In this document: positions 2,749 to 58,334 of the stretch, in pieces
How positions within the stretch are numbered: position 1 is the first letter of the stretch
How the letters are laid out: every line of letters begins with the position of its first letter
Sequence record: OQ174507.1
Reading direction: 5' to 3' (one strand)
DNA: 64,000 nucleotides
Origin: Escherichia phage REP8
Notes under the pieces: generated by a model
What the model saw: the letters and a program-made list of their open reading frames with translations, nothing else
The model's database searches: none
Told to the model about the DNA's origin: nothing
Program-made: the position numbers and the translations under genes

Positions 2749-4164
2749 ATGAGCGAATTATTTATACATGCGCACCTTCATGCAGGTCGAACTGAAAATG
2801 GTGCTGTAAACCATACTTCATCAATGTCTGCTCTTGTGGACTTTTACAAAGCTGCTGGTTCTAGCCGTAGCAATGTAGAAATCTTACCAGACTTGTTCTA
2901 CAAAGCTTTGCATGAAGATGTTGATGTTGCAGTTCGTATTTTACTGCATATGCGAGATGTACGAGAAGGTATGGGTGAGCGTAAAGCTTTCCGAACTGTT
3001 TTACTTCAAGCGATTGAAGATAAAGTTTTAGAGTCTACGCAGGTTCTTCGCATTATGGATAAGATTGCAGAACTTGGTCGTTTTGATGACTTCAAAATCT
3101 TCGTAGGTACTCGTTTCGAGACAGATGCCTTCAAACATTTAGAAGCAGCATTACTAGACCCTGCAACAGCAGGTTTAGCAGCTAAGTGGTTACCACGAGT
3201 AAAACCACGTCACAAACAGTTTGTAAAACGTTTCTGCAAGTTTGCAAACTTGAGTGAGAAAGAGTACCGCACACTGCTGTCTGCACTATCTGATACAGTT
3301 GAGCAAAAAATCTCTGCTAATGAGTTTGGTAAGATTGACTACAGTAAGATTCCTTCACTTGCTGCTGCACGTTACCAAAAACTGTTTAACCGTAAAGATG
3401 GAGAGCGATACAAAGCTTACATCGAGTCCTTATCAAATGGTGAGACTAAGATTAACGCTGGTGCTGTTTACCCATACGATGTGATTAAATCTGTCAAGTA
3501 TGGTAATGCAGATGTTGCTAATGAGCAGTGGAAAGCACTACCAAACTGGATGGTAGAAGGTGAAAACATCTTGTGTATGACTGATGTTTCAAGCTCAATG
3601 TCTTGGGTGAATCTTGGCTCAATTACTGCCCTTGATATTGGTGTATCACTTGCCTTGTATGTAGCAGAACGCAATACAGGTTGCTTTAAGAACGAGTTGA
3701 TGGTTTATTCAACAAACCCTCACTTCATCGAACTGAGTGGTGATTTACGAAACCGTCATCGTCAGGTGATGCGACACGTTGAATATGGCTCAACTAACTT
3801 ACAAGCAGCTTTTGACCGTATTCTTGAGATAGGTAAAAGAAACAACTTGACTCAGGAAGATATGCCAAGTAAGCTTATCATCTTCTCCGATATGGAGTTC
3901 AATCAGGTTGATGGTGCTAACGGTCGTACAAACTTTGAAGCAATTCAGAGTAAGTACAAAAAAGCTGGATATGAGATGCCACAACTGGTATTCTGGTATT
4001 TAGCAAACCGTAATGGTACTTGCGAAGTATCTGTTAAGGATAACGGTGTAGCAATGGTATCTGGTTTCTCTCCAGCCACTTTAAAAGCTCTGCTTGGTGG
4101 TGAGAAGTTTGACCCAACCAGTGTAATGCTCAAAGCAGTAATGATTGACCGTTATATCTGGTAA
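2749..4164 (+). CDS. vWA domain protein (MIDAS motif), possibly Ro60/TROVE-like
   Basis: 471 aa; DVSSSMS matches the DxSxS MIDAS motif of vWA domains; TROVE assignment is from memory only. Confidence 0.45.
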   Translation: MSELFIHAHLHAGRTENGAVNHTSSMSALVDFYKAAGSSRSNVEILPDLFYKALHEDVDVAVRILLHMRDVREGMGERKAFRTVLLQAIEDKVLESTQVLRIMDKIAELGRFDDFKIFVGTRFETDAFKHLEAALLDPATAGLAAKWLPRVKPRHKQFVKRFCKFANLSEKEYRTLLSALSDTVEQKISANEFGKIDYSKIPSLAAARYQKLFNRKDGERYKAYIESLSNGETKINAGAVYPYDVIKSVKYGNADVANEQWKALPNWMVEGENILCMTDVSSSMSWVNLGSITALDIGVSLALYVAERNTGCFKNELMVYSTNPHFIELSGDLRNRHRQVMRHVEYGSTNLQAAFDRILEIGKRNNLTQEDMPSKLIIFSDMEFNQVDGANGRTNFEAIQSKYKKAGYEMPQLVFWYLANRNGTCEVSVKDNGVAMVSGFSPATLKALLGGEKFDPTSVMLKAVMIDRYIW

Positions 4165-4183: not shown

Positions 4184-4212
4184 TGACAATGTGTTTAATA
4201 CCCTTTAATATG
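4184..4212 (+). promoter_or_regulatory. sigma70-like promoter overlapped by an 8 bp inverted repeat (possible operator)
   Basis: TTGACA, 17 bp spacer, TAATAT; AGGGTATT/AATACCCT inverted repeat spans the -35 box and spacer. Confidence 0.5.
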
Positions 4213-4274
4213 TTCTACATAGAAACGAAATGAGAGCTTTTCTAAGATACTGAAAAATATTTTAAAAAAGTTCT

Positions 4275-4304
4275 TGACAATCACTAAAAAATAATGTTAA
4301 AGTG
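4275..4304 (+). promoter_or_regulatory. sigma70-like promoter (weaker -10) upstream of the tRNA array
   Basis: TTGACA, 17-18 bp spacer, TTAAAG/TAAAGT. Confidence 0.35.
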
Positions 4305-4329
4305 GTTACATAGAGTTTGAAAAGTTTAT

Positions 4330-4406
4330 CTCTGTTTAGCTCAGCTTGGTAGAGCGTTCCGTTTGGGGCGGTAAGGCCGGAGGTTCAAGTCCTCCAACAG
4401 AGACCA
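4330..4406 (+). tRNA. tRNA-Pro (anticodon TGG)
   Basis: acceptor CTCTGTT/AACAGAG, T-arm GGAGG-TTCAAGT-CCTCC, anticodon loop TTTGGGG, CCA encoded. Confidence 0.6.
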
Positions 4407-4413
4407 AATTAAT

Positions 4414-4491
4414 GTTCCAGTAGACAAAATGGTAAAGTCACCACTCTTTCAAAGTGGATATCTGAGGGTTCAAATCCCTTCTGGAACGCCA
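4414..4491 (+). tRNA. tRNA-Glu (anticodon TTC)
   Basis: acceptor GTTCCAG/CTGGAAC, anticodon stem CCACT/AGTGG with loop CTTTCAA, CCA encoded. Confidence 0.6.
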
Positions 4492-4582
4492 GTTTTGACA
4501 GAAGACCAATTACAGCAAACTTAATCTACTCATCTGACAAGAAATCGGACAAAGAAGATATTTGGTCTGGTCATTAAGAATT

Positions 4583-4656
4583 GCGGGTATAGAGAAAGGG
4601 CGTCTCACATGTCTCATTAGCATGGTATCGGCAGGTTCGACTCCTGCACCCGCCTC
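4583..4656 (+). tRNA. tRNA-Met (anticodon CAT)
   Basis: anticodon stem CATGT/GCATG with loop CTCATTA; T-arm GCAGG-TTCGACT-CCTGC; acceptor register uncertain. Confidence 0.5.
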
Positions 4657-4742
4657 CAAATTTACAGAAGACCGTTTACAGCAACATTTATTAAATTTTT
4701 AGCGGAAAAAATTGAAAGATACGGTCTGGTAATACTAAATAT

Positions 4743-4816
4743 GGTTAGGAAGCACATAAGGTATGTGCGGTCGCCTGTTAAGCGAATGGCACAGGGTTCG
4801 AATCCCTGACTAACCG
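4743..4816 (+). tRNA. tRNA-Asn (anticodon GTT)
   Basis: D-stem GCAC/GTGC, anticodon loop CTGTTAA, T-arm CAGGG-TTCGAAT-CCCTG; no CCA encoded. Confidence 0.55.
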
Positions 4817-4827
4817 CAAATTTAAAT

Positions 4828-4915
4828 GTGTCGTTATCCCGTAGATGGTAGCGGTGGGGACTGTAAATCCCTTGTCATTGAGACTCGGTAGGTTCGACTC
4901 CTACACGGCACACCA
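4828..4915 (+). tRNA. tRNA-Tyr (anticodon GTA), long variable arm
   Basis: 88 nt; acceptor GTGTCGT/ACGGCAC, anticodon stem GGGGA/TCCCT with loop CTGTAAA, CCA encoded. Confidence 0.55.
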
Positions 4916-4920
4916 ATAAA

Positions 4921-5006
4921 GGTTATGTAGTTTAATTTGGTTAAAATACTTCCACGTAAAAGGATATTGGGAGATGATGTGAGTTCAAGTCTCATCGTAG
5001 CCGCCA
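4921..5006 (+). tRNA. tRNA-like gene, anticodon arm unresolved
   Basis: 86 nt; good acceptor GGTTATG/CGTAGCC, T-arm GTGAG-TTCAAGT-CTCAT and CCA, but no canonical 5 bp/7 nt anticodon stem-loop found by hand. Confidence 0.35.
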
Positions 5007-5158
5007 ATTTTGAGAGGGCTATTTAGAACCTCCCTTAAAGGGTTCTTACGAGTATCCTTTAAAGGAGCAGAAGACCAAATTCAGCAAGTTACTTAAAATT
5101 TCAAGCCAATTCAATTTTGAAAAATTTAAAACTTGGTCTGGCTCAACAAATTTACAGA

Positions 5159-5283
5159 AGACCGTTTACAGCAAAACTTAAACAATCTATTTCTCGGTAA
5201 AGAAAAGGAGAAGGTTCGATTCCTTCACTCGGCAGATGTCGAGTTGGTGTAATGGTAGCACTTAAGATGATAAACAACGGTCT
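5159..5283 (+). ncRNA. circularly permuted tRNA-like module closed by an 8 bp stem (Y-RNA-like candidate)
   Basis: order is T-arm GAAGG-TTCGATT-CCTTC, acceptor 3' strand ACTCGGC, AGAT, acceptor 5' strand GTCGAGT, D-arm-like GGTGTAATGGTAGCAC; flanked by AGACCGTT (5159-5166) / AACGGTCT (5276-5283). Confidence 0.35.
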
Positions 5284-5286
5284 GGT

Positions 5287-5430
5287 AATTATCTTTGTAG
5301 ATAAGTTATTAAGCTTACCTGTGAGTATGCGACCACAAAGGGTGAAAGGGTAAATTCTAGATTTAAACCCAACAAGGCACATCGCTACAGACCTTAAGCA
5401 AGTCTGGGTAGCTTATCTACAAAGATAATT
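5287..5430 (+). repeat. structured element closed by a perfect 19 bp inverted repeat
   Basis: AATTATCTTTGTAGATAAG (5287-5305) pairs with CTTATCTACAAAGATAATT (5412-5430); ~106 nt interior holds sub-hairpins. Confidence 0.55.
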
Positions 5431-5434
5431 TAAT

Positions 5435-5510
5435 GGAAGTGTAGCAGAATGGTGATGCGGCAGACTTTTAATCTGACAGGCGATGGGTTCGAATCCCTCC
5501 ACTTCTACCA
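5435..5510 (+). tRNA. tRNA-Lys (anticodon TTT)
   Basis: acceptor GGAAGTG/CACTTCT, anticodon stem CAGA/TCTG with loop CTTTTAA, CCA encoded. Confidence 0.55.
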
Positions 5511-5514
5511 AAAT

Positions 5515-5590
5515 GGTTCAGTCGCAGATAAGGTAATGCAAGGGTCTCATAAGCCCTATGAATGTGGGTTCGATTCCCATCTGAACCTCC
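5515..5590 (+). tRNA. tRNA-Met or Ile2 (anticodon CAT)
   Basis: acceptor GGTTCAG/CTGAACC, anticodon stem AGGGT/GCCCT with loop CTCATAA, CCA encoded; 1-72 paired so not a bacterial initiator. Confidence 0.55.
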
Positions 5591-5593
5591 AAA

Positions 5594-5669
5594 GCTGTGA
5601 AAGCACATATGGATGTGCATTCGGCTGATAACCGAAAGGCAGAAGGTTCGAATCCTTCTCACAGTACCA
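5594..5669 (+). tRNA. tRNA-Ile (anticodon GAT)
   Basis: D-stem GCAC/GTGC, anticodon stem TTCGG/CCGAA with loop CTGATAA, T-arm GAAGG-TTCGAAT-CCTTC, CCA encoded. Confidence 0.65.
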
Positions 5670-5684
5670 ATTTCAATAAAGTTG

Positions 5685-5713
5685 TTGACATTGAGATGTG
5701 ACCACTTTATAGT
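5685..5713 (+). promoter_or_regulatory. sigma70-like promoter inside the tRNA array
   Basis: TTGACA, 17 bp spacer, TATAGT. Confidence 0.5.
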
Positions 5714-5917
5714 AACCTTAGTTTTCGTTGCGTAGCGTCTATTTTGCAAATTTAAAATAAATGCAAACGACAATGTTTTTCTGGCAGTAGCTTGATAGGC
5801 TAAACACCAGTGAGGTCTTCCAACCCCTCATCAAAGAATTTGGCGTACTAGCCCACGGTATGATTAATAAGGTGGGCATCTTTAAGGGCTTTCTAAGAGA
5901 GTCTTTAAAGATAATTA

Positions 5918-5999
5918 CGGGGCGTATCTCAGCTGTCTTCTAAACAGCCGTTAATCGAGTAAGTGGAGTATGCGGGTTCGAGTCCTGCCGCCTCGACCA
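5918..5999 (+). tRNA. atypical tRNA-like gene with Arg-type anticodon loop (TCT)
   Basis: 82 nt; acceptor CGGGGCG/CGCCTCG, perfect hairpin GCTGT-CTTCTAA-ACAGC, T-arm and CCA present, but only ~5 nt where the D-arm should be. Confidence 0.35.
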
Positions 6000-6238
6000 A
6001 TTTAGTTAGCAGATTACTTAGACGACCTTAGCGGGTCTTCCTGTAGGGAGGTGGTCTGTATCTCATGTTTTCCAGAACATGTAAATAATCTGAGAAGGGG
6101 CTTTACAGTGTTGAGATAATACGGTAAGCTTCGAATTATAGTATGGGACGATGTTAAGACTCTAAGGCATGAGCAACGGCTTCCAACACCGTTTCAAAGG
6201 GGTTCAACTCCTCCGTCACATGCCAAAGTCTTATTAGG

Positions 6239-6326
6239 GGTAGGTAGCGGCTAATGGTAGCCAAACTGTCTTGAAAACAGTTGCCACTGTAGAGATACGG
6301 TGAGGGTTCGACTCCTTTACTTACCG
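6239..6326 (+). tRNA. tRNA-Ser (anticodon TGA), long variable arm
   Basis: 88 nt; acceptor GGTAGGT/ACTTACC, anticodon stem ACTGT/ACAGT with loop CTTGAAA. Confidence 0.55.
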
Positions 6327-6483
6327 CCTAATAAGATTTAAAGCCAAGCTTCATTCGGATGTTGCTTTGGTATACCGCGTGTATTGTTGTACACATTGAT
6401 AAAACACCTAGTAGGTGTCACGGAGAAGAGATAATATCAAGCTCTCCAAAGGTTCTAGTCACCGGATTAAACAAGACTATGCA

Positions 6484-6505
6484 AAGACCTTTTTAGGTCT
6501 TTTTA
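6484..6505 (+). terminator. rho-independent terminator-like hairpin inside the tRNA array
   Basis: AGACC-TTTTTA-GGTCT followed by TTTTT. Confidence 0.4.
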
Positions 6506-6583
6506 GAGGGCTTCTAAGGTTATTACAGCTTGTTGTGGAACCTTGTTGCTTAGGTTCTTAGAAGTTCTCTAAAAAGACTTAAT

Positions 6584-6661
6584 GGGAGATTGACGGTAAT
6601 TGGTAAACCTATCTCGCTTAGAACGAGATGTTTGAGGGTTCGAATCCCTTGTCTCCTACCA
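6584..6661 (+). tRNA. tRNA with anticodon TAG (Leu by anticodon; short variable region)
   Basis: acceptor GGGAGAT/GTCTCCT, anticodon stem TCTCG/CGAGA with loop CTTAGAA, A73, CCA encoded. Confidence 0.45.
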
Positions 6662-6668
6662 AATTAAT

Positions 6669-6744
6669 GCAGGTGTAGCAAAATGGTTATGCGGCTGACT
6701 CTTAATCAGTAAGACGATGGGTTCAATTCCCTCCACCTGTACCA
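6669..6744 (+). tRNA. tRNA-Lys (anticodon CTT)
   Basis: acceptor GCAGGTG/CACCTGT, anticodon stem GCTGA/TCAGT with loop CTCTTAA, CCA encoded. Confidence 0.55.
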
Positions 6745-6750
6745 GACATT

Positions 6751-6826
6751 GGGGATGTAGTTTACATGGTTAAAACATAAGTTTTGCAAACTTAAGTACA
6801 GGGTTCAATTCCCTGCTTCTCCACCA
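6751..6826 (+). tRNA. tRNA-Ala (anticodon TGC)
   Basis: D-stem GTTT/AAAC, anticodon stem TAAGT/ACTTA with loop TTTGCAA, T-arm CAGGG-TTCAATT-CCCTG, CCA encoded. Confidence 0.6.
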
Positions 6827-6832
6827 ATTAGT

Positions 6833-6907
6833 GCATCCATAGTTTAAACGGGAAAATTACAGTCTTCCAAACTGAGGTTGAGGGTTCGATTCCCTCTGGA
6901 TGCTCCA
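6833..6907 (+). tRNA. tRNA-Gly (anticodon TCC)
   Basis: acceptor GCATCCA/TGGATGC, anticodon loop CTTCCAA, T-arm GAGGG-TTCGATT-CCCTC, CCA encoded. Confidence 0.55.
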
Positions 6908-6913
6908 AATAAT

Positions 6914-6990
6914 GCTGCTTTCGTATAATTGGCTATTACACATCCCTTGTAAGGATGGAAATGCAGGTTCGAGTCCTGTGAGCAGCACCA
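6914..6990 (+). tRNA. tRNA-Thr (anticodon TGT)
   Basis: acceptor GCTGCTT/GAGCAGC, anticodon stem CATCC/GGATG with loop CTTGTAA, CCA encoded. Confidence 0.6.
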
Positions 6991-6992
6991 AT

Positions 6993-7080
6993 TCAGAGGT
7001 CAAGTGAAAGACCGCTGGTGTCAACTGAAGACCGTAACAAATTCCACGGAGTTGAGTTAGCGGCACAACTTCAGACCTCT
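6993..7080 (+). ncRNA. long imperfect hairpin (candidate small RNA or processing element)
   Basis: nested stems CAGAGGTC/GACCTCTG, CCGCT/AGCGG, CAACT/AGTTG, CCGT/ACGG; contains a GAAGACCGT motif. Confidence 0.35.
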
Positions 7081-7085
7081 TTCAC

Positions 7086-7160
7086 ACTCGCTTAGTTTAT
7101 ATGGTAAAACATCACCCTTACAAGATGAAGAAAAAGGTTCAAGTCCTTTAGTGAGTACCA
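7086..7160 (+). tRNA. tRNA-Val (anticodon TAC)
   Basis: acceptor ACTCGCT/AGTGAGT, D-stem GTTT/AAAC, anticodon loop CTTACAA, CCA encoded. Confidence 0.5.
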
Positions 7161-7161
7161 T

Positions 7162-7239
7162 GTTCCAGTATCCCAATTGGCAGAGGATGCAAGCTCAAAC
7201 CTTGTATTAGTGACGGTTCGAATCCGTCTTGGAACACCA
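7162..7239 (+). tRNA. tRNA with anticodon CAA (Leu by anticodon; short variable region)
   Basis: acceptor GTTCCAG/TTGGAAC, anticodon stem GCAAG/CTTGT with loop CTCAAAC, T-arm GACGG-TTCGAAT-CCGTC, A73, CCA encoded. Confidence 0.45.
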
Positions 7240-7258
7240 ATTTTAAGAGGCTATTTAG

Positions 7259-7816
7259 ATGAGATATTTGAAGTATGCTTCATGGATTTTCCTAGCTTTA
7301 CTAGAGCCATTTGCAGCAACCCTAGCAGTCATCTTAGCACCTTTCGTAGTTCCATTCTACAGTGAGAAGAAAGGGCATCTACCTTTTGGATTCAGATGGA
7401 TGGAGACCTATGACAACCCGATTGATGGTGACAAAGGCCACGTTGAGAGATGGGCTAAGATTAGAAAGATTGGTAAGCTCGGTGTTTATATGCAGAGAGT
7501 TGGGTGGCTCTGGAGAAACAAAGCTTATAACTTCTCTTACCATGTATTAGGAAGAGATGTAAAAGATGTTACTAAGTGGAAAGGTAATATCAACGTAAGT
7601 TCTGACCCTGAAGATAATCAGACTGGTTATCTCCTAATGTGGAACAGTAATGCTTGGGGATTATTCGCTTTTATCCCATCAATTAAAGTCTTTGGTAAAC
7701 AGTTTTACTGGAGAATTTATATTGGATGGAAACTAAAAAGCGTTGTCCCAGAAGAAAGAGCATTCTCAAGGGAAAGAGTTATGTTGGCATTCTTTATTCA
7801 TCCACTGAGAAAGTAA
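7259..7816 (+). CDS. hypothetical membrane protein encoded inside the tRNA array
   Basis: 185 aa; AAGAGG RBS 8 nt upstream of ATG; hydrophobic N-terminus (WIFLALLEPFAATLAVILAPFVV). Confidence 0.45.
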   Translation: MRYLKYASWIFLALLEPFAATLAVILAPFVVPFYSEKKGHLPFGFRWMETYDNPIDGDKGHVERWAKIRKIGKLGVYMQRVGWLWRNKAYNFSYHVLGRDVKDVTKWKGNINVSSDPEDNQTGYLLMWNSNAWGLFAFIPSIKVFGKQFYWRIYIGWKLKSVVPEERAFSRERVMLAFFIHPLRK

Positions 7817-7824
7817 AGATTTAA

Positions 7825-7900
7825 AGGGGATTAGTTTACAAGGTTAAAACCTCGGTCTTTGAAATCGAAGAAGTTGGTTCAATTCCAACATCCCCCGCCA
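7825..7900 (+). tRNA. tRNA-Gln (anticodon TTG)
   Basis: anticodon stem TCGGT/ATCGA with loop CTTTGAA, T-arm GTTGG-TTCAATT-CCAAC, CCA encoded. Confidence 0.5.
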
Positions 7901-7902
7901 AT

Positions 7903-7981
7903 GCTCCATTACTCCAATTGGCAGAGAGGCCAGACTTAAAATCTGTGTTATGTATCGGTTCGAATCCGATATGGAGTACCA
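7903..7981 (+). tRNA. tRNA with anticodon TAA (Leu by anticodon)
   Basis: acceptor GCTCCAT/ATGGAGT, anticodon stem CAGA/TCTG with loop CTTAAAA, A73, CCA encoded. Confidence 0.45.
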
Positions 7982-7986
7982 AATTT

Positions 7987-8062
7987 AGCGGTATAGCATA
8001 ACTGGCAATGCAACAGTCTCTGAAGCTGTCCTATTAAGGTTCAAATCCTTATGCCGCTGCCA
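7987..8062 (+). tRNA. tRNA-Gln (anticodon CTG)
   Basis: acceptor AGCGGTA/TGCCGCT, D-stem GCAT/ATGC, anticodon stem ACAGT/GCTGT with loop CTCTGAA, CCA encoded. Confidence 0.55.
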
Positions 8063-8093
8063 CTTCTAAGGATTCTTGCGAGAGTCCTTAAAT

Positions 8094-8169
8094 GTGGCCT
8101 TATCATAAATGGTAATGACCCATGCTGTGAACATGGTCTATACGGGTTCAAATCCCGTAGGTCACCCCA
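8094..8169 (+). tRNA. tRNA-His (anticodon GTG)
   Basis: acceptor GTGGCCT/AGGTCAC, anticodon stem CCATG/CATGG with loop CTGTGAA, C73, CCA encoded. Confidence 0.6.
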
Positions 8170-8174
8170 ATTTA

Positions 8175-8251
8175 TAGTCCAAGTAGCTTATATGGTTAAA
8201 GCGCGTGTCTGAAAAACATGAGAAGAGGGTTCAAATCCCACTGGACTACCA
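8175..8251 (+). tRNA. tRNA-Phe (anticodon GAA)
   Basis: acceptor TAGTCCA/TGGACTA, anticodon stem CGTGT/ACATG with loop CTGAAAA; 3' end register uncertain. Confidence 0.5.
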
Positions 8252-8267
8252 ATTTCAAAGGTGCTTA

Positions 8268-9002
8268 ATGAAAGAGATGACAGAACAAGGTAAGGAGATT
8301 TTTAATCTCTTAAAAACCGGTAAAGGGTTTTCTAATCCCCTTATTACTGGTGCAGCAGTCCTCGGTGGAACCGTAGCTGCTTCTACATCACTTGTAAGCT
8401 CTATTAGTTCTGTAACAGACCCTACAATGAAGGAGAAACTTGTTACTGCTGGACTTACAACAGTCCTTCTAAACAGCTTTACAACAAGCCTTACAAGCAC
8501 TACAGCAACTACTAAGACCCTAACAGACTACGGTCAAAAGTCTATTGATGAGTTTTCATCACGTATGCAGGTAGCAAAGGGATACTCTAATGTTATGGGT
8601 GCAGCAGGAGAACAAGTTGGTTGTACACCATTCAGTGGTATTATGGGTGTTGCTACAGAGTATGGTCAAAAAGCTATTGACATGATGAACAGTACACTAG
8701 ATAGTGTTAATGGTGTGTTAAGTGACTTACAAGATGCTATTGATAAGGGTCTTGATACTGTTTCTGATTTAGCTGAGCAAGCTGTTAGTAAGATTAATGA
8801 AGGTATTTCGAAGATTACAGCTTATGCAGATGAAGTTGTGCAGATGATTGAAGAAGAAGCTGCCCTTATTGCAGAGTACCTTAAAACGAATATCAATGGG
8901 TTCTTAGCAGGTATCTTACCAGACTGGTTTGATGATGCTTGTAAAACTGGTGTGATTGAAACTATTGCAACACCAGAAATGAAGAGCGCATTACAGAAAT
9001 AA
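8268..9002 (+). CDS. hypothetical protein
   Basis: ORF-track frame 8205..9002 begins inside tRNA-Phe; in-frame ATG at 8268 with AAAGG upstream is the more likely start. Confidence 0.4.
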   Translation: MKEMTEQGKEIFNLLKTGKGFSNPLITGAAVLGGTVAASTSLVSSISSVTDPTMKEKLVTAGLTTVLLNSFTTSLTSTTATTKTLTDYGQKSIDEFSSRMQVAKGYSNVMGAAGEQVGCTPFSGIMGVATEYGQKAIDMMNSTLDSVNGVLSDLQDAIDKGLDTVSDLAEQAVSKINEGISKITAYADEVVQMIEEEAALIAEYLKTNINGFLAGILPDWFDDACKTGVIETIATPEMKSALQK

Positions 9003-9004
9003 AT

Positions 9005-9097
9005 GGAAGATTAACCCTAAAAGGTAAGGGAGCAGTTTGCTAAACTGCCAGTAGCTGAGAAATCGGTGTACCAGTTCAAGTCTGGTATCTTCCTCCA
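9005..9097 (+). tRNA. tRNA-Ser (anticodon GCT), long variable arm
   Basis: 93 nt; perfect acceptor GGAAGAT/ATCTTCC, anticodon stem GCAGT/ACTGC with loop TTGCTAA, CCA encoded. Confidence 0.6.
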
Positions 9098-9101
9098 ATT
9101 T

Positions 9102-9177
9102 GAATCCGTGACAGAAATGGCTATGTGCCTGTCTGCAAAACAGGTTTATAAGGGTTCGAGTCCCTTCGGATTCTCCA
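9102..9177 (+). tRNA. tRNA-Cys (anticodon GCA)
   Basis: perfect acceptor GAATCCG/CGGATTC, anticodon stem CCTGT/ACAGG with loop CTGCAAA, CCA encoded. Confidence 0.65.
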
Positions 9178-9339
9178 AATTATTTTACTCTCTCTCAATT
9201 AAAATAATAATAATGCCCTGCTATAAGTATTCTTCCTTTCGCTACCGAAGAGTATTTTTAGACAGGGCTTTTTTACAGAGTTATACTTTATAAGAAGGCT
9301 TATACAGTATGTCTCTGACGTACATTGTGGTTTCTCCTT

Positions 9340-9363
9340 GACGGTCTCTGTGCCGTCTTTTTT
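9340..9363 (+). terminator. rho-independent terminator at the end of the tRNA array
   Basis: GACGG-TCTCTGTG-CCGTC followed by TTTTTT. Confidence 0.55.
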
Positions 9364-9399
9364 AAGGGGAAACAATATTAATTATTTGGAGAAAACATA

Positions 9400-9600
9400 A
9401 TGAGCGAGAACGTTTATAAAGAACTTTATGAAGCTAACAAGAAGTTAGAGTTTATGCAGAATACCATCATGGCAATTGCAGACAGATTATCTGTAGCAAC
9501 AGGTATTGATATTAAAGAAGCATCTATGGATGCACTTCTTGATGCTGTTGATGCAAAGTTCGAAGTTAAGAAAGAAGAGACTGCTACAGGCTCTGAATAA
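9400..9600 (+). CDS. hypothetical small protein
   Basis: 66 aa ORF directly upstream of the large terminase. Confidence 0.3.
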   Translation: MSENVYKELYEANKKLEFMQNTIMAIADRLSVATGIDIKEASMDALLDAVDAKFEVKKEETATGSE

Positions 9601-41232: not shown

Positions 41233-41500
41233 CATCTGGTCAATACACTCGCAAGGTGTACCAGTTCTCTTATGAACTTCTCCGCATTTCTACGGAGTGT
41301 CGGACTATATCACGTAGTAGTAATACTACCGTTGCACTTGGGAATGGTCATTAGCTTACCACCCTACTCTACTCAGTTCATACATTAAGTATGCTTTTCG
41401 ATAGTCTCTGAACGTTCCTCTCAAGAGGCTTCGCTGCTGATTACCGTATCTTCTCAGACTTAGGCTTCCAGCAATTCACAACGTTTTACATGCGCCACTG
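41233..41500 (-). ncRNA. group I intron in the DNA polymerase gene
   Basis: 268 nt; exon ends ATGCGT and intron nt 6-11 GCGCAT form P1; GTTCAGAGACTA (R) and GATATAGTCC (S); last nt G; opens with a stop in frame; no ORF inside. Confidence 0.6.
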
Positions 41501-43673
41501 ACGCATAAATGCCATTTTTGGCTTTCTTACGACCTTTTGTAATCTCGTGGAGAAGTTCCTCATCCTGTGTCTCCCTGCAACGAACAATATCCTCTTCTTT
41601 GTTAAGACCAAAGTAAATACTGTTCAGTGTATGCGCATCAGTCCCTGTGTAGACTTCATAGAGGTCGTTCTCAGCATCATAACGAAGATACTTATCAGTT
41701 TCTGGATTAAGATACTTATCGAGATGCTTGCAATAGTATCTGCCATCTTCTTGCTTAGTGAACTCTACTGACTCTTTACCCTCAGTTACCGCTTTGGTGA
41801 ACTCTTTATCACCCATAAAGTTACAAAGAAGAACAAGCTGTGCAGAGTTCTGGTCAACTGAAACGATATTAGTCCCTTCCTCGCAAATCCAAACCTCCCT
41901 CATAGGCGCTCCATAGACAGCAGCACCAGACGGTACGTTTACAATACCATATTGTGTCATACGTCCAGTTGAAGTACCAAACACCATTGCACCAGCACTA
42001 AGGCGACCATCAGGACGAATCTGGTTCAACCAACCTTTTTCATCATCCTTTGAGTTCTCAATAGTTCTGCGTCGGTGCATCAAAGTATAGTACTTAGCAA
42101 TCTTCTGTCCAAGCTCACCTTCAATCGTGTCATAAGATGATTCAGTAAGTTTTGGTGAAGTACGGATTAAGCAAGGCTCAAGCAAATCTGTGTATTTCTT
42201 CACAGACCAGTTATGTTCAATGTACTGTACACCTTCATGCTCAACATAGCTCAAACCACACCGCTCAACCATTTCCTGCCACTTAGGATGCTTTGTAATC
42301 ATCTTTTTATTGTCTTTGAAACGACAAACTTTAACAGGGCGACCATCTGAGTCTTTCTTGTAGTTCCAGTCATCTGGAATCCAACCAACTGATTTCAAGT
42401 AGTCTTTAACAACTGCTACCTGAGTCATACGAGAAACTTCAAACTCAATTGGTGTATACGGTGCATCAATCAAACCTGTGTAGCGACTCGACTCAAGCTC
42501 AAAGTGGTTAACAACGTGGCTGTTATAGTACTTCACAGTTTTGACTGTTTTTACTGGCTTCCAGTCTTTGCATTTCTTACCAATCTTTGCGTTCAACTCA
42601 TTGCAAATTGCACGAGCATCCTTCATTGCTACAAAACCTTCTTTGTACTCTTCACCAGTTACAGAGTTGGTTGGTGTATAGCAATTCCGCTTTTCAATGT
42701 TAAAAATCTTTGTAGTTGGCTTACCAAATGGCTTGATTTCATATGTCTGCATCTCACCGTTACGTACCTGTTGACGATACTTTGTCTTAGGGTACTTGGT
42801 AATTCTCTTCAGTCCATCTGCATGACCAAATGCTTCAACATACTCATTCCAAGCTTTTGCAAACTCTTCTCCAGTGACTTTACCTTTGGTCTTAATAGTT
42901 GGAGGTAGATGTGGTTCAACCTCTGAAGCAAGCTCATTAGTCAACTTGTCAAGTTCCTTTACATGGAACTCCATAAGTTCTTTATCAGCTTTCCAGCCAT
43001 TGATAGCTTGTTGACTCATCCAGAAAGATGTTTCTTTAGCTCGCATGTAGGTTTCATAGGTGTCTACGCCACACTTCTTTAGCTTCAGATATTCATTATC
43101 CAATGCACGTTTAGTTTTGGCGTTGATACGGATATCTTCTACAACACGAGTGAAGATTTCTGCATTCCACACACCCCAATGTTCAATCTCTGGTTTACGA
43201 ACACCAACACGAGCACCCCATGCAGCCAAGCCATGAGCACCTTTATAACCCTTTGGAGTTGGCCTATCCATCCACTGAACACGAGACTGGATAAGAGAAT
43301 CCTGAAAGAAATTACTCCACGGTTTACACTTTGGATTATCAAAGTTCCATAAATCAGGTGCAATGTGATTGAAAACCCACCAGTCATAACCGAGACCGTT
43401 ATGGATGCAAAGACGTTTTGCCTTTAACGCAAATTCAACACCTTCACGTAAACCACCCTTGATGTACTTAGTGTACTTGTGACCGAGGATAGGTTCATCT
43501 GTAAAGACCCATACAGGTGGCTCTTCATCGTCAGATTTATAGTCTGCGAAAGCCATTACGTGCACTTTAGTGAACTCAAGAAGTAAACCATCAGTTTCTG
43601 TATCACCAACTAAATGTAAGTTTTTAAAATCTACGTTTTCCATTTTTACTCCCTCTAAAATCATTAACCTCAT
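41501..43673 (-). CDS. DNA polymerase (family A, T7-like), exon 1
   Basis: N-terminal exonuclease motif LVGDTETDGL; ends ...RKKAKNGIYA in the middle of motif B. Confidence 0.65.
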
Positions 43674-56821: not shown

Positions 56822-58018
56822 ATGAACAAAGTACAGATTATTAAAAAGAATGGCTCACTCGAAGAACCTGATATCAAAAAAGTTTTAACAGCAGTCACAA
56901 AGTCAGCTAATAGGGTTGGGTATAAAGAACTCCCGCCAGATGTTACCCAAGCTCTTGAGTCAGCATTTATGAGGGTTCTGGTAAAATCCACTAAGCAGAA
57001 TAATTTACTCGTTTCAGTAAATGATATTCACAGTATTGTTGAGGGTGCTTTGGCAGAAGTCAATCACGAGATTTATGAGTCTTACTCAACATATAGAAAT
57101 TACCGTAAAGAGGTTGCTCAAAACTGGGATGAACTCTACCAGAAGACTAAAGATACACTCTTCTTAGGTGACCGTGAAAATGCTAATTTTGACAGCAGTT
57201 TAATTTCTACGAAAGGTTCAATTATCCGTGGTTACCTGACTAAAGAAATCTTTAAACAGTATCATCTAACACCAGAGGAACTTGAAGCCATTGAGAAAGG
57301 CTTTGTCTATATCCATGATTTAAGAGACCTGATTTTTGGTGGTATTAACTGTTGCCTGTTTGACATTGGTAAAGTACTAAAAGGTGGCTTTGAAATGTCC
57401 GGCATTGAGTACTGTGAACCTAAATCTGTACTGTCAGCGTTGCAGGTTATTGGTGACGTAGTACTTTCAGCAACTGCACAGCAATTTGGTGGTTTTACTT
57501 TAGCAGAGATTGATAAGGTACTTGTACCGTATGCGAAGAAGTCTCTACGCTATCATGCTGAGAAAGCATCATCTTATGGTATCCCTAAAGAGCATTACCA
57601 CAATTATGTCATGGAGCAGCTACAGATTGAACTGACTCAAGGTTTCCAGTCGCTTGAAATGAAACTAAACACTGTACCTTGTAGTCGTGGGGATTTTGCA
57701 TTTACAACTTTGACATTCGGGTTACTTGACTCAGACATGTCTAATGAAGACAACCGACTGCAATACATGATTGCAAGTACTCTCCTAGATGTTCGTATGA
57801 ATGGACAAGGTAAGAGTAAGAAGCCTGTTGTATTCCCTAAACTGGTTTATATTTATGACCAGAAGAGACATAATGAGAATATCTGTCAAGGCCACCTGTA
57901 CAGTAAAGCTATAGAGTGTTGCTCTAAAGCGATGTATCCAGATTTCTTAAGTGTATCTGGTCATGGTGCTGTAGCAGAAGCTTTTGAGCGTTCTGGTAAG
58001 GTTATTTCACCGATGGGT
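56822..58018 (+). CDS. nrdD: anaerobic ribonucleotide reductase, exon 1
   Basis: ATP-cone-like N-terminus; ends ...ISPMG with T as last exon nucleotide; an in-frame TAA opens the intron. Confidence 0.65.
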
Positions 58019-58334
58019 TAACAAGCTCTATAGCTCATCTAAAACGTGCCTAAACAGGGAAACTCTACAGATGTAGACAATCCTGTGCTAAATGATGTAC
58101 GATGTAAGAAACTATACAACATAGGGGTCTTACATGCCAAATAACTTCGAATATGAGTTTGGATACATCTAAATGCCGAACGACTAACCGTGATGAATGT
58201 AGCGGTGTAGGGTCAAGCGACTCGAAATGGTACGCTACTTAGAAATAAGTAGAAGATATAGTCTGGACTTACTGGCGACAGTAAGCAGCTTGAATAAAGC
58301 GGGGTAAGCGTAGCGAACTTACCTGAACAACAAG
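58019..58334 (+). ncRNA. group I intron in nrdD
   Basis: 316 nt; AAGATATAGTCT (S element), GACTAA (R/P7 region), last nt G, preceding exon ends in T; no ORF inside. Confidence 0.6.

Follow-up and report, generated by a model that had tools for sequence, protein, structure and literature searches.

To our knowledge, the cloverleaf with its fixed connectivity is treated as universal among tRNAs, animal mitochondria excepted. The circularly permuted tRNA genes of Cyanidioschyzon merolae resemble the arginine gene described here in carrying tRNA segments in a non-standard order, but there the permutation affects the entire gene and a normal tRNA is regained on processing, whereas the phage gene has normal acceptor ends and only an internal segment transposed, so that the mature RNA itself would be rewired. 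The D-armless metazoan mitochondrial tRNA-Ser(AGY/AGN) likewise passes from the acceptor stem to the anticodon stem without an intervening hairpin, and in some species carries an anticodon for AGN codons, UCU in Ascaris; its D arm is lost and adapted factors are needed (PMC4013460, PMC7609411). This contrasts with the phage arginine RNA, in which a D-type helix and a D loop with GG survive elsewhere in the chain together with a full T arm, and which would have to work with ordinary bacterial factors.

The (8/4) tRNAs, which are present in phage tRNA clusters and active in E. coli translation, share with the phage tryptophan gene a 12-bp branch made up of an 8-bp acceptor stem and a T stem of 4 bp, an architecture not found in the arginine gene (Mukai et al., PMC5389517). 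The 8/4 species described are Ser, His, Cys and Sec tRNAs, for the most part with a long variable arm (PMC5389517), whereas the tryptophan gene has a 9-nt connector and a Trp identity that are not among them, and has neither the long variable arm nor the Sec-like long D stem of 8/4 tRNAs and allo-tRNAs. An engineered tRNA of non-canonical fold, evolved for E. coli, is also a non-cloverleaf adaptor used with bacterial machinery, but it is synthetic, whereas the phage genes would be natural examples; that 2024 report states that all known bacterial tRNAs are cloverleaf (PMC11551756). In the literature searched we found no description of either the arginine or the tryptophan architecture.

Irregular loci in a Felixounavirus tRNA array

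The window, a stretch of 64,000 nucleotides from Escherichia phage REP8 (OQ174507.1), is of Felixounavirus type, with 100% identity to Escherichia phage REP9-12, and contains 23 tRNAs called by ARAGORN, among which the Arg, Asp and Trp isotypes are absent. Three loci, which a first-pass annotation had singled out as tRNA-like but without a canonical cloverleaf, are present at, or within 1-2 bases of, where it had placed them, and none folds as a standard cloverleaf; they correspond to the three missing isotypes (locus 1, Asp; locus 2, Arg; locus 3, Trp). ARAGORN makes no call at any of the three in a scan of the window and returns no canonical cloverleaf with another anticodon. With the Rfam tRNA model (RF00005) at its gathering threshold, locus 1 is the only one of the three matched in the whole window (41.1 bits), while locus 2 passes the cut-off of 29 bits, with 31.2 bits, only when the search is restricted to 571 nt, and locus 3 gives no match in either search. 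As a separate observation, the REP9 lineage has lost its tRNA-Arg(ACG).

All three loci encode CCA, as do the other members of the array, behind an acceptor stem of 7 bp (loci 1 and 2) or 8 bp (locus 3). A D hairpin at positions 10-25, 2 nt after the acceptor stem, is found in locus 1 and not in loci 2 and 3, and a 5-bp anticodon stem with a 7-nt loop is present in locus 2, the loop being 15 nt in locus 1 and 9 nt in locus 3, or 7 nt there if closed by a C.A or C.C mismatch. Pseudo-tRNAs, mimics, non-canonical tRNAs and faulty manual folds had all been offered as explanations. We read loci 2 and 3 as non-canonical but functional tRNAs because of their covariation, their isotype-consistent anticodons and identity elements, and the cloverleaf isoacceptors that occupy their slots in sister phages; locus 1 is better described as an inactivated or repurposed tRNA-Asp.

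Locus 1 retains the acceptor stem, D arm, T arm, G73 and CCA, and aligns with the tRNA-Asp(GTC) genes of Felix O1 and ST11 except at the anticodon loop. It had been reported to have an excellent acceptor stem and CCA but no 5 bp/7 nt anticodon stem-loop, and indeed CTTCC/GGGAG encloses 15 nt, a loop found only in REP5-7, REP9-12, Tf and FGS030. Because these 15 nt, which do not contain GUC, replace the anticodon loop, locus 1, the tRNA-Asp ortholog of this lineage, is most likely inactive as an Asp adaptor. REP9 has it labelled as tRNA-Thr(CGT), and Tf and FGS030 have it as a second tRNA-Tyr; both labels are countered by the lack of a 5-bp closing stem on hand pairing, by the G discriminator and by the plain Asp orthology. 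A somewhat unlikely alternative is that the locus is alive as a repurposed structured RNA, a tRNA scaffold displaying the 15-nt loop, for example as a decoy or a base-pairing small RNA: the loop is identical on intact stems in all four lineages, changes outside it keep or improve pairing, and CCA is still encoded. However, the phages are 96-100% identical at the locus, so that conservation of the loop carries little weight; in addition, the normal CTGTCAC Asp loop is kept in 186 of 195 related records, and the window copy has an extra stem change from C-G to U.G.

The three Leu tRNAs proved as short as first noted, with A73 and with variable loops of 4, 5 and 7 nt in place of a class II long variable arm. 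Leu tRNAs carry the long arm everywhere but in animal mitochondria (PMC9976931). The mitochondrial tRNA-Leu shares with the phage genes the combination of Leu anticodons and a short variable loop, whereas in the phage genes the features that E. coli LeuRS uses are retained, namely A73, a U ahead of the T stem and a D arm of bacterial Leu type with a 3-bp stem and an AAUUGG..A loop (PMC9976931). The T stem is preceded by T in all three genes, and the D loop of tRNA-Leu(TAG) is TAATTGGTA; judged by the published determinants, the three carry A73, a Leu-type D loop (G18G19 placement, A20a) and U48 (PMC9976931). We propose, from these sequence features, that they are working tRNAs of a short-variable-loop type.

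Table 1. Features of the tRNA array and its surroundings, numbered along the window.
Feature	Position	Strand	Details
YrlA-like element	5152-5292		630 nt upstream (see text)
Sigma-70-like promoter TTGACA-17-TATAGT	5685..5713	+	Consensus match only; ~205 nt upstream of Arg gene
tRNA-Asp-derived gene (locus 1), 86 nt	4921..5006	+	Rfam tRNA 41.1 bits, 17-nt insertion at anticodon loop
Locus 1 anticodon stem CTTCC/GGGAG	4949-4953/4969-4973	+	Encloses 15-nt loop ACGTAAAAGGATATT (4954-4968)
Non-canonical tRNA-Arg(UCU) (locus 2), 82 nt	5918..5999	+	Family model R1, 101.5 bits, E = 7e-27
Arg acceptor stem, 7 bp	5918-5924/5989-5995	+	Followed by A73 and CCA at 5996-5999
Arg mini-helix 5' strand (CTC, then A)	5928..5931	+	Pairs with 5956-5959
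Arg anticodon arm, 5-bp stem, loop CTTCTAA	5932..5948	+	Anticodon TCT at 5939-5941
Arg 7-nt bulge CGTTAAT, between anticodon stem and mini-helix 3' strand	5949..5955	+	Column composition
Arg mini-helix 3' strand (C GAG), then relocated D loop T-AAGTGGAGTA-T	5956..5971	+	
Arg T arm GCGGG-TTCGAGT-CCTGC	5972..5988	+	Double changes in 3/5 pairs
Non-canonical tRNA-Trp(CCA) (locus 3), 83 nt	6143..6225	+	RNAalifold on 8 distinct sequences
Trp acceptor stem, 8 bp	6143-6150/6214-6221	+	G73 at 6222, CCA at 6223-6225
Trp 9-nt connector ATGTTAAGA, acceptor stem to D hairpin	6151..6159	+	2 nt in canonical tRNA
Trp D hairpin CTC-TAAGGCAT-GAG	6160..6173	+	Middle pair U-A (5 sequences) to A-U (3 sequences)
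Trp anticodon arm AACGG-CTTCCAACA-CCGTT	6175..6193	+	CCA at 6183-6185
Trp T arm GGGG-TTCAACT-CCTC, 4-bp stem	6199..6213	+	Pair 59-73 G-C to U-A in Sf14
tRNA-Leu(TAG), 78 nt	6584..6661	+	4-nt variable loop, A73 (ARAGORN bracket output)
tRNA-Leu(CAA), 78 nt	7162..7239	+	5-nt variable loop, 3-bp D stem, D loop CAATTGGCAGA, A73 (ARAGORN)
tRNA-Leu(TAA), 79 nt	7903..7981	+	7-nt variable loop, 3-bp D stem, D loop CAATTGGCAGA, A73 (ARAGORN)

The proposed transposed D element of the arginine gene

In locus 2 only 7 nt lie between the acceptor and anticodon stems and no hairpin forms there, the helix partner of this region being found instead 3' of the anticodon arm, where 23 nt come after the anticodon stem; the Rfam tRNA model accommodates the gene only with a deletion of the D arm and an insertion of 20 nt. 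The first-pass annotation had recognized the anticodon-type hairpin with TCT (GCTGT-CTTCTAA-ACAGC) and the near absence of room for a D arm, and only 7 nt do precede the anticodon stem, but the D element is relocated rather than absent (Table 1). The 5' strand of the mini-helix occupies the place of canonical D-stem positions 23-25 plus 26, and the GG of the relocated D loop (5965-5966) is followed by the A20-equivalent at 5967. The bulge, with the family consensus C-R-T-T-A-A-N, resembles TGTTAAGA just 5' of the D stem in the tryptophan gene. We infer that the linker maps to A14, A15, G18, G19, A20, A21 and U48. Within it, TAAnTGGAGTAT is constant in all family members, a constancy owed in large part to the search patterns used, which fixed much of this stretch. 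The A right after GG is likewise present in every member (TGGAG), in a stretch that was part of the search patterns, and would be equivalent to position 20 in three dimensions.

A scan that left the anticodon unspecified yielded 71 distinct members of the arginine family, which is phage-wide. In an alignment of 46 distinct sequences (A3), 98.8% of cells are paired and double changes occur at 16 of 20 pairs, including all five of the anticodon stem; none of 500 shuffles is as good, and slid controls are at most 45% paired. The trio 11-13/40-42 appears in nine fully complementary forms (CTC/GAG, CGC/GCG, CAC/GTG, CAT/ATG, CAG/CTG, CGG/CCG, CTT/AAG, CGT/ACG and CCC/GGG), and columns 14 and 39 co-vary as well (A.C 42, C.A 11, C-G 6, A-U 5, U.G 4, U-A 1). 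The anticodon is TCT in 68 of the 71 members, CCT in two and TCG in one, and a shorter variant carries ACG; all four specify arginine, with C35 and U/G36 kept. The discriminator is G in 36 members and A in 32, the window copy having A. The identity set of bacterial ArgRS comprises C35, U/G36, A/G73 and A20 (PMC9976931). On one contig, a TCG and a TCT copy of the element lie 300 bp apart.

In existing records the locus is annotated as 'tRNA-OTHER NNN' (REP9), as tRNA-Leu(taa) (121Q) or as a suppressor 'tRNA-TERM' (7t3). The latter two readings take the bulge GTTAATC for an anticodon loop, and we reject them because of the 11-13/40-42 covariation and the all-Arg anticodon spectrum. The element is found in at least six unrelated phage groups and is nearly absent from 185,579 bacterial and archaeal genomes, where eight pattern matches include four real ones, all in metagenome-assembled genomes. 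DNAVirus_2961 of PMC10690425, with overlapping ARAGORN tRNA-Arg calls, might belong to the same family.

In Sf14, a cloverleaf tRNA-Arg(TCT) is located exactly at the slot of locus 2, between flanks that are ~90% identical to the window. It shares with the window gene the slot, the loop CTTCTAA, the 7/5 acceptor/T branch, an A/G discriminator, the encoded CCA and the presumed reading of AGA, whereas in the window gene, which is invisible to ARAGORN, the 5' strand of the D stem and the D loop come after the anticodon arm. The element of K18PH07C1 is interrupted by an HNH gene and a cloverleaf tRNA-Arg(TCT), and HNH genes lie directly 3' of the element in Felix O1 and Roth39. Among 104 loci with the element, Arg(acg) is also present in 20 and a separate ARAGORN Arg(tct) in only 2 or 3. 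AGA accounts for 40% of the Arg codons in the ORFs of the window, and for Felix O1 no tRNA was found for the over-used AGA codon (PMC3185647).

The tryptophan gene and its neighbours

Locus 3 had been delimited by GGCATG and CATGCC around a T-arm-like hairpin. These motifs (6166-6171 and 6219-6224) do flank such a hairpin, but comparison of relatives reveals a longer gene, 6143-6225, and the motifs are not its termini because CATGCC consists of the end of the acceptor 3' strand, G73 and the CC of the CCA tail. A GGCATG/CATGCC stem closing the gene at its termini is further countered by the cassette replaced in wV8, which starts at 6143, and by ATGGGAC/GTCCCAT, which co-varies and is followed by G-CCA. 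The complementarity between GGCATG in the D loop and CATGCC at the 3' end co-varies in Yersinia phage P778 too, and an alternative conformer is therefore possible.

The gene has a 3-bp D stem and a 5-nt variable loop, and the acceptor stem of the window copy contains a G4.A69 mismatch. The sequence GACGATGTTAAGAC is identical in all homologs, including that of P778; a scan of IMG/VR with this 14-mer returned mostly chance matches, the real ones being only Ounavirinae-type contigs. In Sf14 the inner 7 nt of the anticodon loop read CTCCAAA. Pairing amounts to 98.8%, with double changes at 8 of 20 pairs and none in slid controls, in a family of only eight distinct sequences whose covariation comes mostly from the divergent P778 lineage and Mooglevirus. 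Pairs 1-72 and 2-71 change from A-U/U-A to G-C/C-G in P778, and the remaining double changes are in the anticodon stem (four of the five pairs), the D stem (one pair) and the T stem (one pair). All eight sequences have G-C at pair 8-74. The window copy carries A1-U72, G5-C68, G73 and the CCA anticodon, which are bacterial Trp identity elements, and pair 1-72 is A-U, G.U or G-C in relatives. In wV8, ARAGORN calls a cloverleaf tRNA-Trp(cca) in the same slot with identical flanks, followed on its 3' side by an ORF that reads as HNH-type. The reported tRNAs of Sf14 cover 19 amino acids but not Trp (PMC12482277).

Upstream of both genes, the promoter candidate in Table 1 agrees with the consensus at 11 of 12 positions, the highest agreement within 4200-9400. 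The YrlA-like element folds into a T arm, an acceptor-like stem-loop and a D arm inside a long terminal stem, in agreement with the described architecture of YrlA-type Y RNAs (PMC4201824); its acceptor-like stem shows a compensatory change in Sf14, and 5152-5292 has no Rfam YrlA match. Further upstream, ORF 2749-4164 matches DUF2828, DUF7788 and, weakly, vWA, as well as a PHROG labelled 'RNA-binding protein'. Ro60 was considered for this ORF and not retained: it has no TROVE match and no PDB sequence match, and the single-sequence AlphaFold model (pLDDT 44) is unusable. A tmRNA-like region at 5727-5916 contains a tag-like frame, ANDNVFLAVA followed by two stops, and scores 15.3 bits with Rfam tmRNA (cut-off 47); no accompanying tRNA-like domain was found and ARAGORN makes no tmRNA call there. 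Locus 3 does not qualify as that domain, having no G3.U70 but possessing G73 and an anticodon arm.

Proposed rewired adaptors and the competing readings

Structure and covariation are established here, as are the range of anticodons, the replacements at the slots and the demand for the codon, and we consider it probable that the array includes two tRNAs wired otherwise than as cloverleaves, which supply the Arg (AGA) and Trp (UGG) adaptors missing from the 23 ordinary genes. In the arginine RNA, the segment with the D-stem 5' strand and D loop (positions 10-21) would lie after the anticodon arm. A short CUC strand at the place of 23-25 would pair with GAG downstream of that arm, to be followed by the loop A14-A15-n-U-G18-G19-A20-..-A21, with a U in place of U48 leading to the T stem; the helices and loop being the same as usual, they could therefore give the L shape by another chain connectivity. 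The tryptophan RNA keeps the normal order; its acceptor stem is 8 bp and its T stem 4 bp long, and a 9-nt connector precedes its 3-bp D hairpin. As for the three-dimensional fold, so for expression, processing, aminoacylation and decoding we infer the course of events: both RNAs would be excised from a polycistronic transcript and charged by host ArgRS and TrpRS, which would recognize the kept identity elements, before serving on host ribosomes.

HNH homing-endonuclease cassettes appear to swap the two genes with cloverleaf alleles in the same slots, and may have spread the arginine gene among unrelated phages. The altered core or gene sequence may also have been selected for escape from tRNA-targeting host defences or homing endonucleases. 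A wider claim, to which we give an even chance, is that these RNAs represent a natural tRNA class in many unrelated phage groups, in which the D loop and the 5' strand of the D stem are transposed to the 3' side of that arm which bears the anticodon, charged by host ArgRS and reading AGA, AGG, CGA or CGN, to which Felix O1-type phages add a rewired Trp tRNA.

The odd sequences could also have been selected mainly as DNA, namely as alleles escaping HNH homing endonucleases aimed at cloverleaf tRNA genes, or the reverse, the RNA being just functional enough. We consider this unlikely, though it would account for their non-canonical form and is compatible with the two RNAs acting as rewired adaptors. 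The HNH genes adjoining or inserted into the arginine element and the HNH-type ORF beside the wV8 tRNA-Trp speak for it, and the ~87% identity of the arginine element between unrelated phages fits horizontal spread; however, HNH genes stand beside both types of allele, the cleavage sites are hypothetical, and selection on DNA alone leaves the fine conservation of bases for RNA tertiary interactions unaccounted for.

We judge it quite improbable that loci 2 and 3 are tRNA mimics acting outside decoding, for example as decoys or sponges for a tRNA nuclease, a synthetase or another tRNA-binding factor, with the altered core barring entry into translation. Their core is indeed non-standard and rejected by detection programs, another tRNA mimic, the YrlA-like element, lies 630 nt upstream, and a decoy for an Arg-specific anticodon nuclease would likewise keep Arg anticodon loops; phage tRNA arrays have been discussed as counter-measures to anticodon nucleases (PMC12482277). 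Yet both genes are swapped slot for slot by cloverleaf isoacceptors in sister phages, the arginine element is nearly always the sole UCU-anticodon gene in large arrays, and AGA demand is high. The discriminator, CCA, T loop, GG and A20-like base of the arginine gene are all retained, and two isoacceptors occur on the same scaffold in one contig. That loci 2 and 3 are decaying pseudogenes or chance fragments, as their labels ('tRNA-OTHER', 'tRNA-TERM', 'tRNA-Leu') or missing annotation and the erosion elsewhere in the REP9 lineage (Asp loop, tRNA-Arg(ACG) loss, Trp acceptor mismatch) might suggest, is extremely improbable and already contradicted by the covariation, since pseudogenes do not retain 98-99% pairing with many compensatory changes over dozens of unrelated phage contigs.

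If the two genes do serve as rewired adaptors, they would be the first tRNAs of non-cloverleaf connectivity known in bacterial cytoplasmic translation, and a tRNA-Arg with a transposed D element that works with ordinary E. coli factors would mean that the L shape can be built by a different chain topology, offering synthetic biology a ready-made, orthogonal-looking scaffold. They would also explain the missing tRNA for the heavily used AGA codon in the Felix O1 paper, with none annotated in many related records, and likewise the missing Trp tRNA of Sf14. As these genes are overlooked or mislabelled by current annotation pipelines, censuses of phage tRNAs and arguments from codon usage would be biased. 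Finally, the slot-for-slot swaps with cloverleaf genes beside HNH genes would provide a testable system for homing endonucleases, and possibly host anti-tRNA defences, as drivers of tRNA evolution.

Three atypical genes and the isotypes absent from the array

The tRNA-array segment (4300-9200) is 100% identical to that of Escherichia phages REP9-12 (Felixounavirus) and ~96.5% identical to that of Salmonella phage Felix O1. The tRNA genes found by ARAGORN serve 17 amino acids, with none for Arg, Asp or Trp. The first-pass annotation had pointed to three tRNA-like loci in the array that resist cloverleaf folding, and this observation was confirmed. ARAGORN makes no call at any of the three, to which the missing isotypes correspond. 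Sequence comparison best explains two of them, an Arg element and a Trp gene, as functional tRNAs with new wiring.

Features of the array and related loci (coordinates refer to the window unless a record handle is given)
Feature	Coordinates	Strand	Description
471-aa ORF	2749-4164	+	just upstream of array; Pfam DUF2828, DUF7788, weakly vWA; PHROG 850 'RNA-binding protein'
23 tRNA genes (ARAGORN)	4330-9177	+
Hairpin motif, four copies	4494-4578, 4663-4735, 5066-5142, 5152-5292	+	CAGAAGACCnn(n)-TTACAGCAA...-nn(n)GGTCTGG; between tRNA genes
Asp-derived gene	4921-5006	+	Rfam tRNA 41.1 bits; 17-nt insertion in place of anticodon loop
tRNA mimic	5152-5292	+	T arm GAAGG-TTCGATT-CCTTC; hairpin ACTCGGC-AGAT-GTCGAGT; D arm GTG-TAATGGTA-CAC
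Inverted repeat	5290-5427	+	16 nt, TATCTTTGTAGATAAG / CTTATCTACAAAGATA, around ~105 nt
Putative near-consensus promoter	5685-5713		upstream of tmRNA-like segment
tmRNA-like messenger segment	5727-5916	+
Tag frame	5763-5798	+	AAAATAAAT, then GCA AAC GAC AAT GTT TTT CTG GCA GTA GCT TGA TAG (ANDNVFLAVA, two stops)
Arg element	5918-5999	+	7-bp acceptor stem, TATCTCA, hairpin with loop CTTCTAA, 23 nt, T arm, A73, CCA
Trp gene	6143-6225	+	5' strand ATGGGAC(G) pairs with (C)GTCCCAT directly after T stem, then G and CCA
Complementary pair in Trp gene	6166-6171, 6219-6224		GGCATG (D loop); CATGCC (end of acceptor 3' strand, G73, CC)
Place of missing tRNA-Arg(ACG)	7240-7259
Region with tRNA-Arg(ACG), Felix O1	L002:4686-4893		between tRNA-Leu(CAA) and 558-nt ORF
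HNH ORF, Felix O1	L002:2635-3027		directly beside or inside Arg and Trp slots (all three HNH ORFs); annotated
HNH ORF, K18PH07C1	L011:1555-1950		putative
HNH ORF, wV8	L052:7937-8360		putative
Possible two-piece tmRNA locus	L101:850-1160		unrelated viral contig, IMG/VR
Group I intron	41280-41563	-	61.7 bits
Group I intron	57911-58285	+	55.4 bits

The arginine element

The earlier description of this locus, a perfect hairpin with TCT and hardly any room for a D-arm, proved exact. BLAST with the 82-mer retrieved Felixounavirus sequences at high identity and, at 86-89%, sequences of unrelated phages, including jumbo phages 121Q and 7t3, Klebsiella T5-like phages Roth39 and Spivey, Mydovirus and other Vequintavirinae, a Kuravirus and Streptomyces phages. 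There the copies either lack annotation or bear the label 'tRNA-OTHER', 'tRNA-TERM' or 'tRNA-Leu(taa)', and ARAGORN does not detect them either. In an alignment of 46 distinct sequences from a pattern scan of IMG/VR, 98.8% of the cells of the proposed structure are paired and 16 of the 20 pairs show two-sided changes; none of 500 shuffles was as good, slid controls reached at most 45% pairing, and RNAalifold recovered the three main helices independently. A new short helix joins columns 11-13 with 40-42 across the anticodon arm in nine fully complementary versions, and the adjacent columns 14 and 39 co-vary (A.C, C.A, C-G, A-U and U.G). The 5' strand of this mini-helix would stand in place of positions 23-25 and 26, and the 3' strand in place of 10-13. 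The stretch that follows, T-A-A-n-T-G-G-A-G-T-A-T, can be read as U13, A14, A15, 16, 17, G18, G19, A20, two extra bases, A21 and U48, where the U48-equivalent leads straight into the T stem. We infer that block 10-21 has shifted from before to after block 22-43, such that the usual helices and the GG loop could still assemble, with altered connectivity, into an L-shaped fold.

A second scan with the anticodon left unspecified brought the family to 71 distinct members, with anticodons TCT (68), CCT (2) and TCG (1); a single contig carries TCG and TCT copies 300 bp apart. Scored with a covariance model derived from the alignment, the window copy reaches 101.5 bits, against no more than 34 bits for ordinary tRNAs; the model also finds a shorter variant of unchanged wiring with anticodon ACG. 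All four anticodons are arginine anticodons, cover both Arg codon boxes and retain C35 and U/G36; 68 of the 71 members have G or A as discriminator, and in every one an A directly follows GG. These features appear to match the bacterial ArgRS identity set (A/G73, A20, C35 and U/G36; PMC9976931).

Shigella phage Sf14 (Mooglevirus) carries a cloverleaf tRNA-Arg(TCT) in exactly this slot (PMC12482277), both flanks being ~90% identical to the window, and the copy of Klebsiella phage K18PH07C1 is interrupted by an inserted putative HNH endonuclease gene together with a cloverleaf tRNA-Arg(TCT). Among 104 loci with the element, a cloverleaf Arg(acg) is also present in 20 and a separate ARAGORN Arg(tct) in only 2-3. 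AGA makes up 40% of Arg codons in the window ORFs; the Felix O1 genome paper expected a tRNA for this over-represented codon and did not find one (PMC3185647). The pattern matches 89 stretches in IMG/VR and, in 185,579 prokaryotic genomes, eight places (four real, all in metagenome-assembled genomes); the element is essentially restricted to phages.

The tryptophan, aspartate-derived and leucine genes

The GGCATG/CATGCC pairing reported in the first-pass annotation is present at the third locus, but the gene, as delimited by its relatives, is longer than proposed. In Yersinia phage P778 the two segments remain complementary (GGTGTG/CGCGCC), which may point to an alternative conformer with a hidden 3' end or be coincidental. 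RNAalifold on eight distinct sequences gave an 8-bp acceptor stem, a 5-nt variable loop and a 4-bp T stem. Pairs 1-2 change from A-U, U-A to G-C, C-G in P778, and pair 1-72 is G.U in some Felixounaviruses. The 9-nt connector ATGTTAAGA is identical in all homologs, the D hairpin CWC-TAAGGCAT-GWG shows one double change and the 5-bp anticodon stem four. Overall, 98.8% of pairs are paired, with double changes in 8 of 20 and none in slid controls, for a structure derived from this same small sample. If a C.A mismatch closes the loop CYTCCAAMM, the inner seven nucleotides are TTCCAAC in the window and CTCCAAA in Sf14, so that the anticodon would be CCA. The bacterial Trp identity elements A1-U72, G73, G5-C68 and the CCA anticodon (PMC9976931) are present in the gene. 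The decisive context is the slot: phage wV8 carries here, between identical flanks, a tRNA-Trp(cca) that ARAGORN detects and, behind it, an ORF that we read as HNH-type, and the replaced segment starts at the A taken as position 1. The tRNAs of Sf14 serve 19 amino acids, Trp being the sole exception (PMC12482277). 8/4 tRNAs are known from bacteria and phages and are active in E. coli; their description includes no such 9-nt connector (PMC5389517). In the window copy a C-to-A change leaves a G4.A69 mismatch.

By alignment, the Asp-derived gene is the ortholog of the tRNA-Asp(GTC) genes of Felix O1 and ST11. Substantial difference is confined to the loop, where CTGTCAC is replaced by ACGTAAAAGGATATT between unchanged stem strands; the window lineage carries an extra C-to-T change in the stem. 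The discriminator is G, and both the GUC anticodon and the U33 context are missing. We read the gene as a probable damaged tRNA-Asp, inactivated recently. The 15-nt loop is identical in all nine carriers among 195 related records (REP5-7, REP9-12, Shigella phage Tf and Salmonella phage FGS030), which are too similar for this conservation to be informative; a repurposed scaffold is the less likely alternative. None of the database labels, tRNA-Thr(CGT), 'tRNA-OTHER' and second tRNA-Tyr, fits.

The three Leu tRNAs are indeed unusually short, as had been remarked (78-79 nt, A73), and ARAGORN folds them as cloverleaves whose variable loops measure 4, 5 and 7 nt, all three with a 3-bp D stem and an AATTGG-type D loop. 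Of 67 distinct Leu tRNAs in the phage loci sampled, 39 are at most 80 nt, and the Ser and Tyr tRNAs there are all long; this sample is skewed toward contigs that carry the Arg element. Because E. coli LeuRS depends on A73 and D/T-loop tertiary elements rather than on the long arm (PMC9976931), the short phage Leu tRNAs are plausibly functional. The same review assigns Leu tRNAs a long arm everywhere save animal mitochondria, a rule to which these genes would be an under-noticed exception.

The window lacks a tRNA-Arg(ACG) gene that its relatives carry: in Felix O1 and wV8 it sits between tRNA-Leu(CAA) and a 558-nt ORF, and in Sf14 immediately upstream of tRNA-Gln(TTG). This absence, the altered Asp loop and the mismatch in the Trp acceptor stem jointly suggest that the tRNA set is eroding in the REP9 lineage.

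Neighbouring elements and a proposed exchange of tRNA genes

Between the tRNA genes lies a tRNA mimic of YrlA-type architecture, in which a long closing stem (AGACCGTT/AACGGTCT) surrounds a T arm, an acceptor-like hairpin and a D arm. In Sf14 a compensatory change turns A-U into U-A in the acceptor-like stem, and the fold has z = -2.7; Rfam YrlA gives no match here. The mimic coincides with the fourth copy of a hairpin motif whose inner stem bases vary with complementarity kept, and only this copy encloses a tRNA-like domain. The copies might be modules bound by the upstream 'RNA-binding protein', which recalls Ro60 in layout (N-terminal part helical, C-terminal part vWA-like); it has no TROVE or PDB sequence match, and its AlphaFold model is unusable (pLDDT 44). 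The inverted repeat between the YrlA-like element and tRNA-Lys keeps its outer stem, with changes, in Sf14 and has no Rfam match.

The tmRNA-like segment scores 15.3 bits with Rfam tmRNA (E = 4e-4, 571-nt search). Its tag frame is kept in Mooglevirus with only synonymous or stop-to-stop changes, and the hairpin 3' of the frame shows compensatory changes; no tRNA-like domain was found in the segment. The L101 contig carries, in this order, a 69-nt alanine-type tRNA-like piece (GGGGATG...CATCTCC-A-CCA, G3.U70, GGTTCGAC motif), a rewired tRNA-Arg and a tag-like frame (ANDNVSQFQARVAA, stop), and resembles a tmRNA gene in two pieces that are separated by the Arg gene; ARAGORN makes no call there. 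The two group I introns in the window exceed the Rfam gathering threshold; the 2010 Felix O1 genome paper stated introns to be absent (PMC3185647).

Full-text literature searches found no description of the Arg or Trp architecture. Phages go unmentioned in a review of non-canonical tRNAs, and a 2024 paper describes all known bacterial tRNAs as cloverleaves (PMC11551756). A catalogue of structured RNAs of viruses, published in 2023, lists one candidate that in some cases overlaps tRNA-Arg genes called by ARAGORN and may belong to the Arg family.

Both rewired genes have GTTAA and two bases directly 5' of the strand at D-stem 10-12, which is followed by T and AA..GG (Arg, CGTTAAtc-GAG-TAAgTGG; Trp, TGTTAAga-CTC-TAA-GG). 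HNH genes lie beside or within the Arg and Trp slots of several phages, those of wV8 and K18PH07C1 being HNH-type by our reading. Two of these ORFs accompany the cloverleaf allele of the tRNA they displace. The HNH genes at the slots, together with the ~87% identity of the Arg gene across unrelated phages, suggest cassette exchange driven by endonucleases. That the rewiring evades homing endonucleases or host defences aimed at tRNAs is offered only as a hypothesis. The rewired Arg gene is widespread and the rewired Trp gene belongs to Ounavirinae-type phages, and a predicted role for both in translation is well supported by the comparative evidence.
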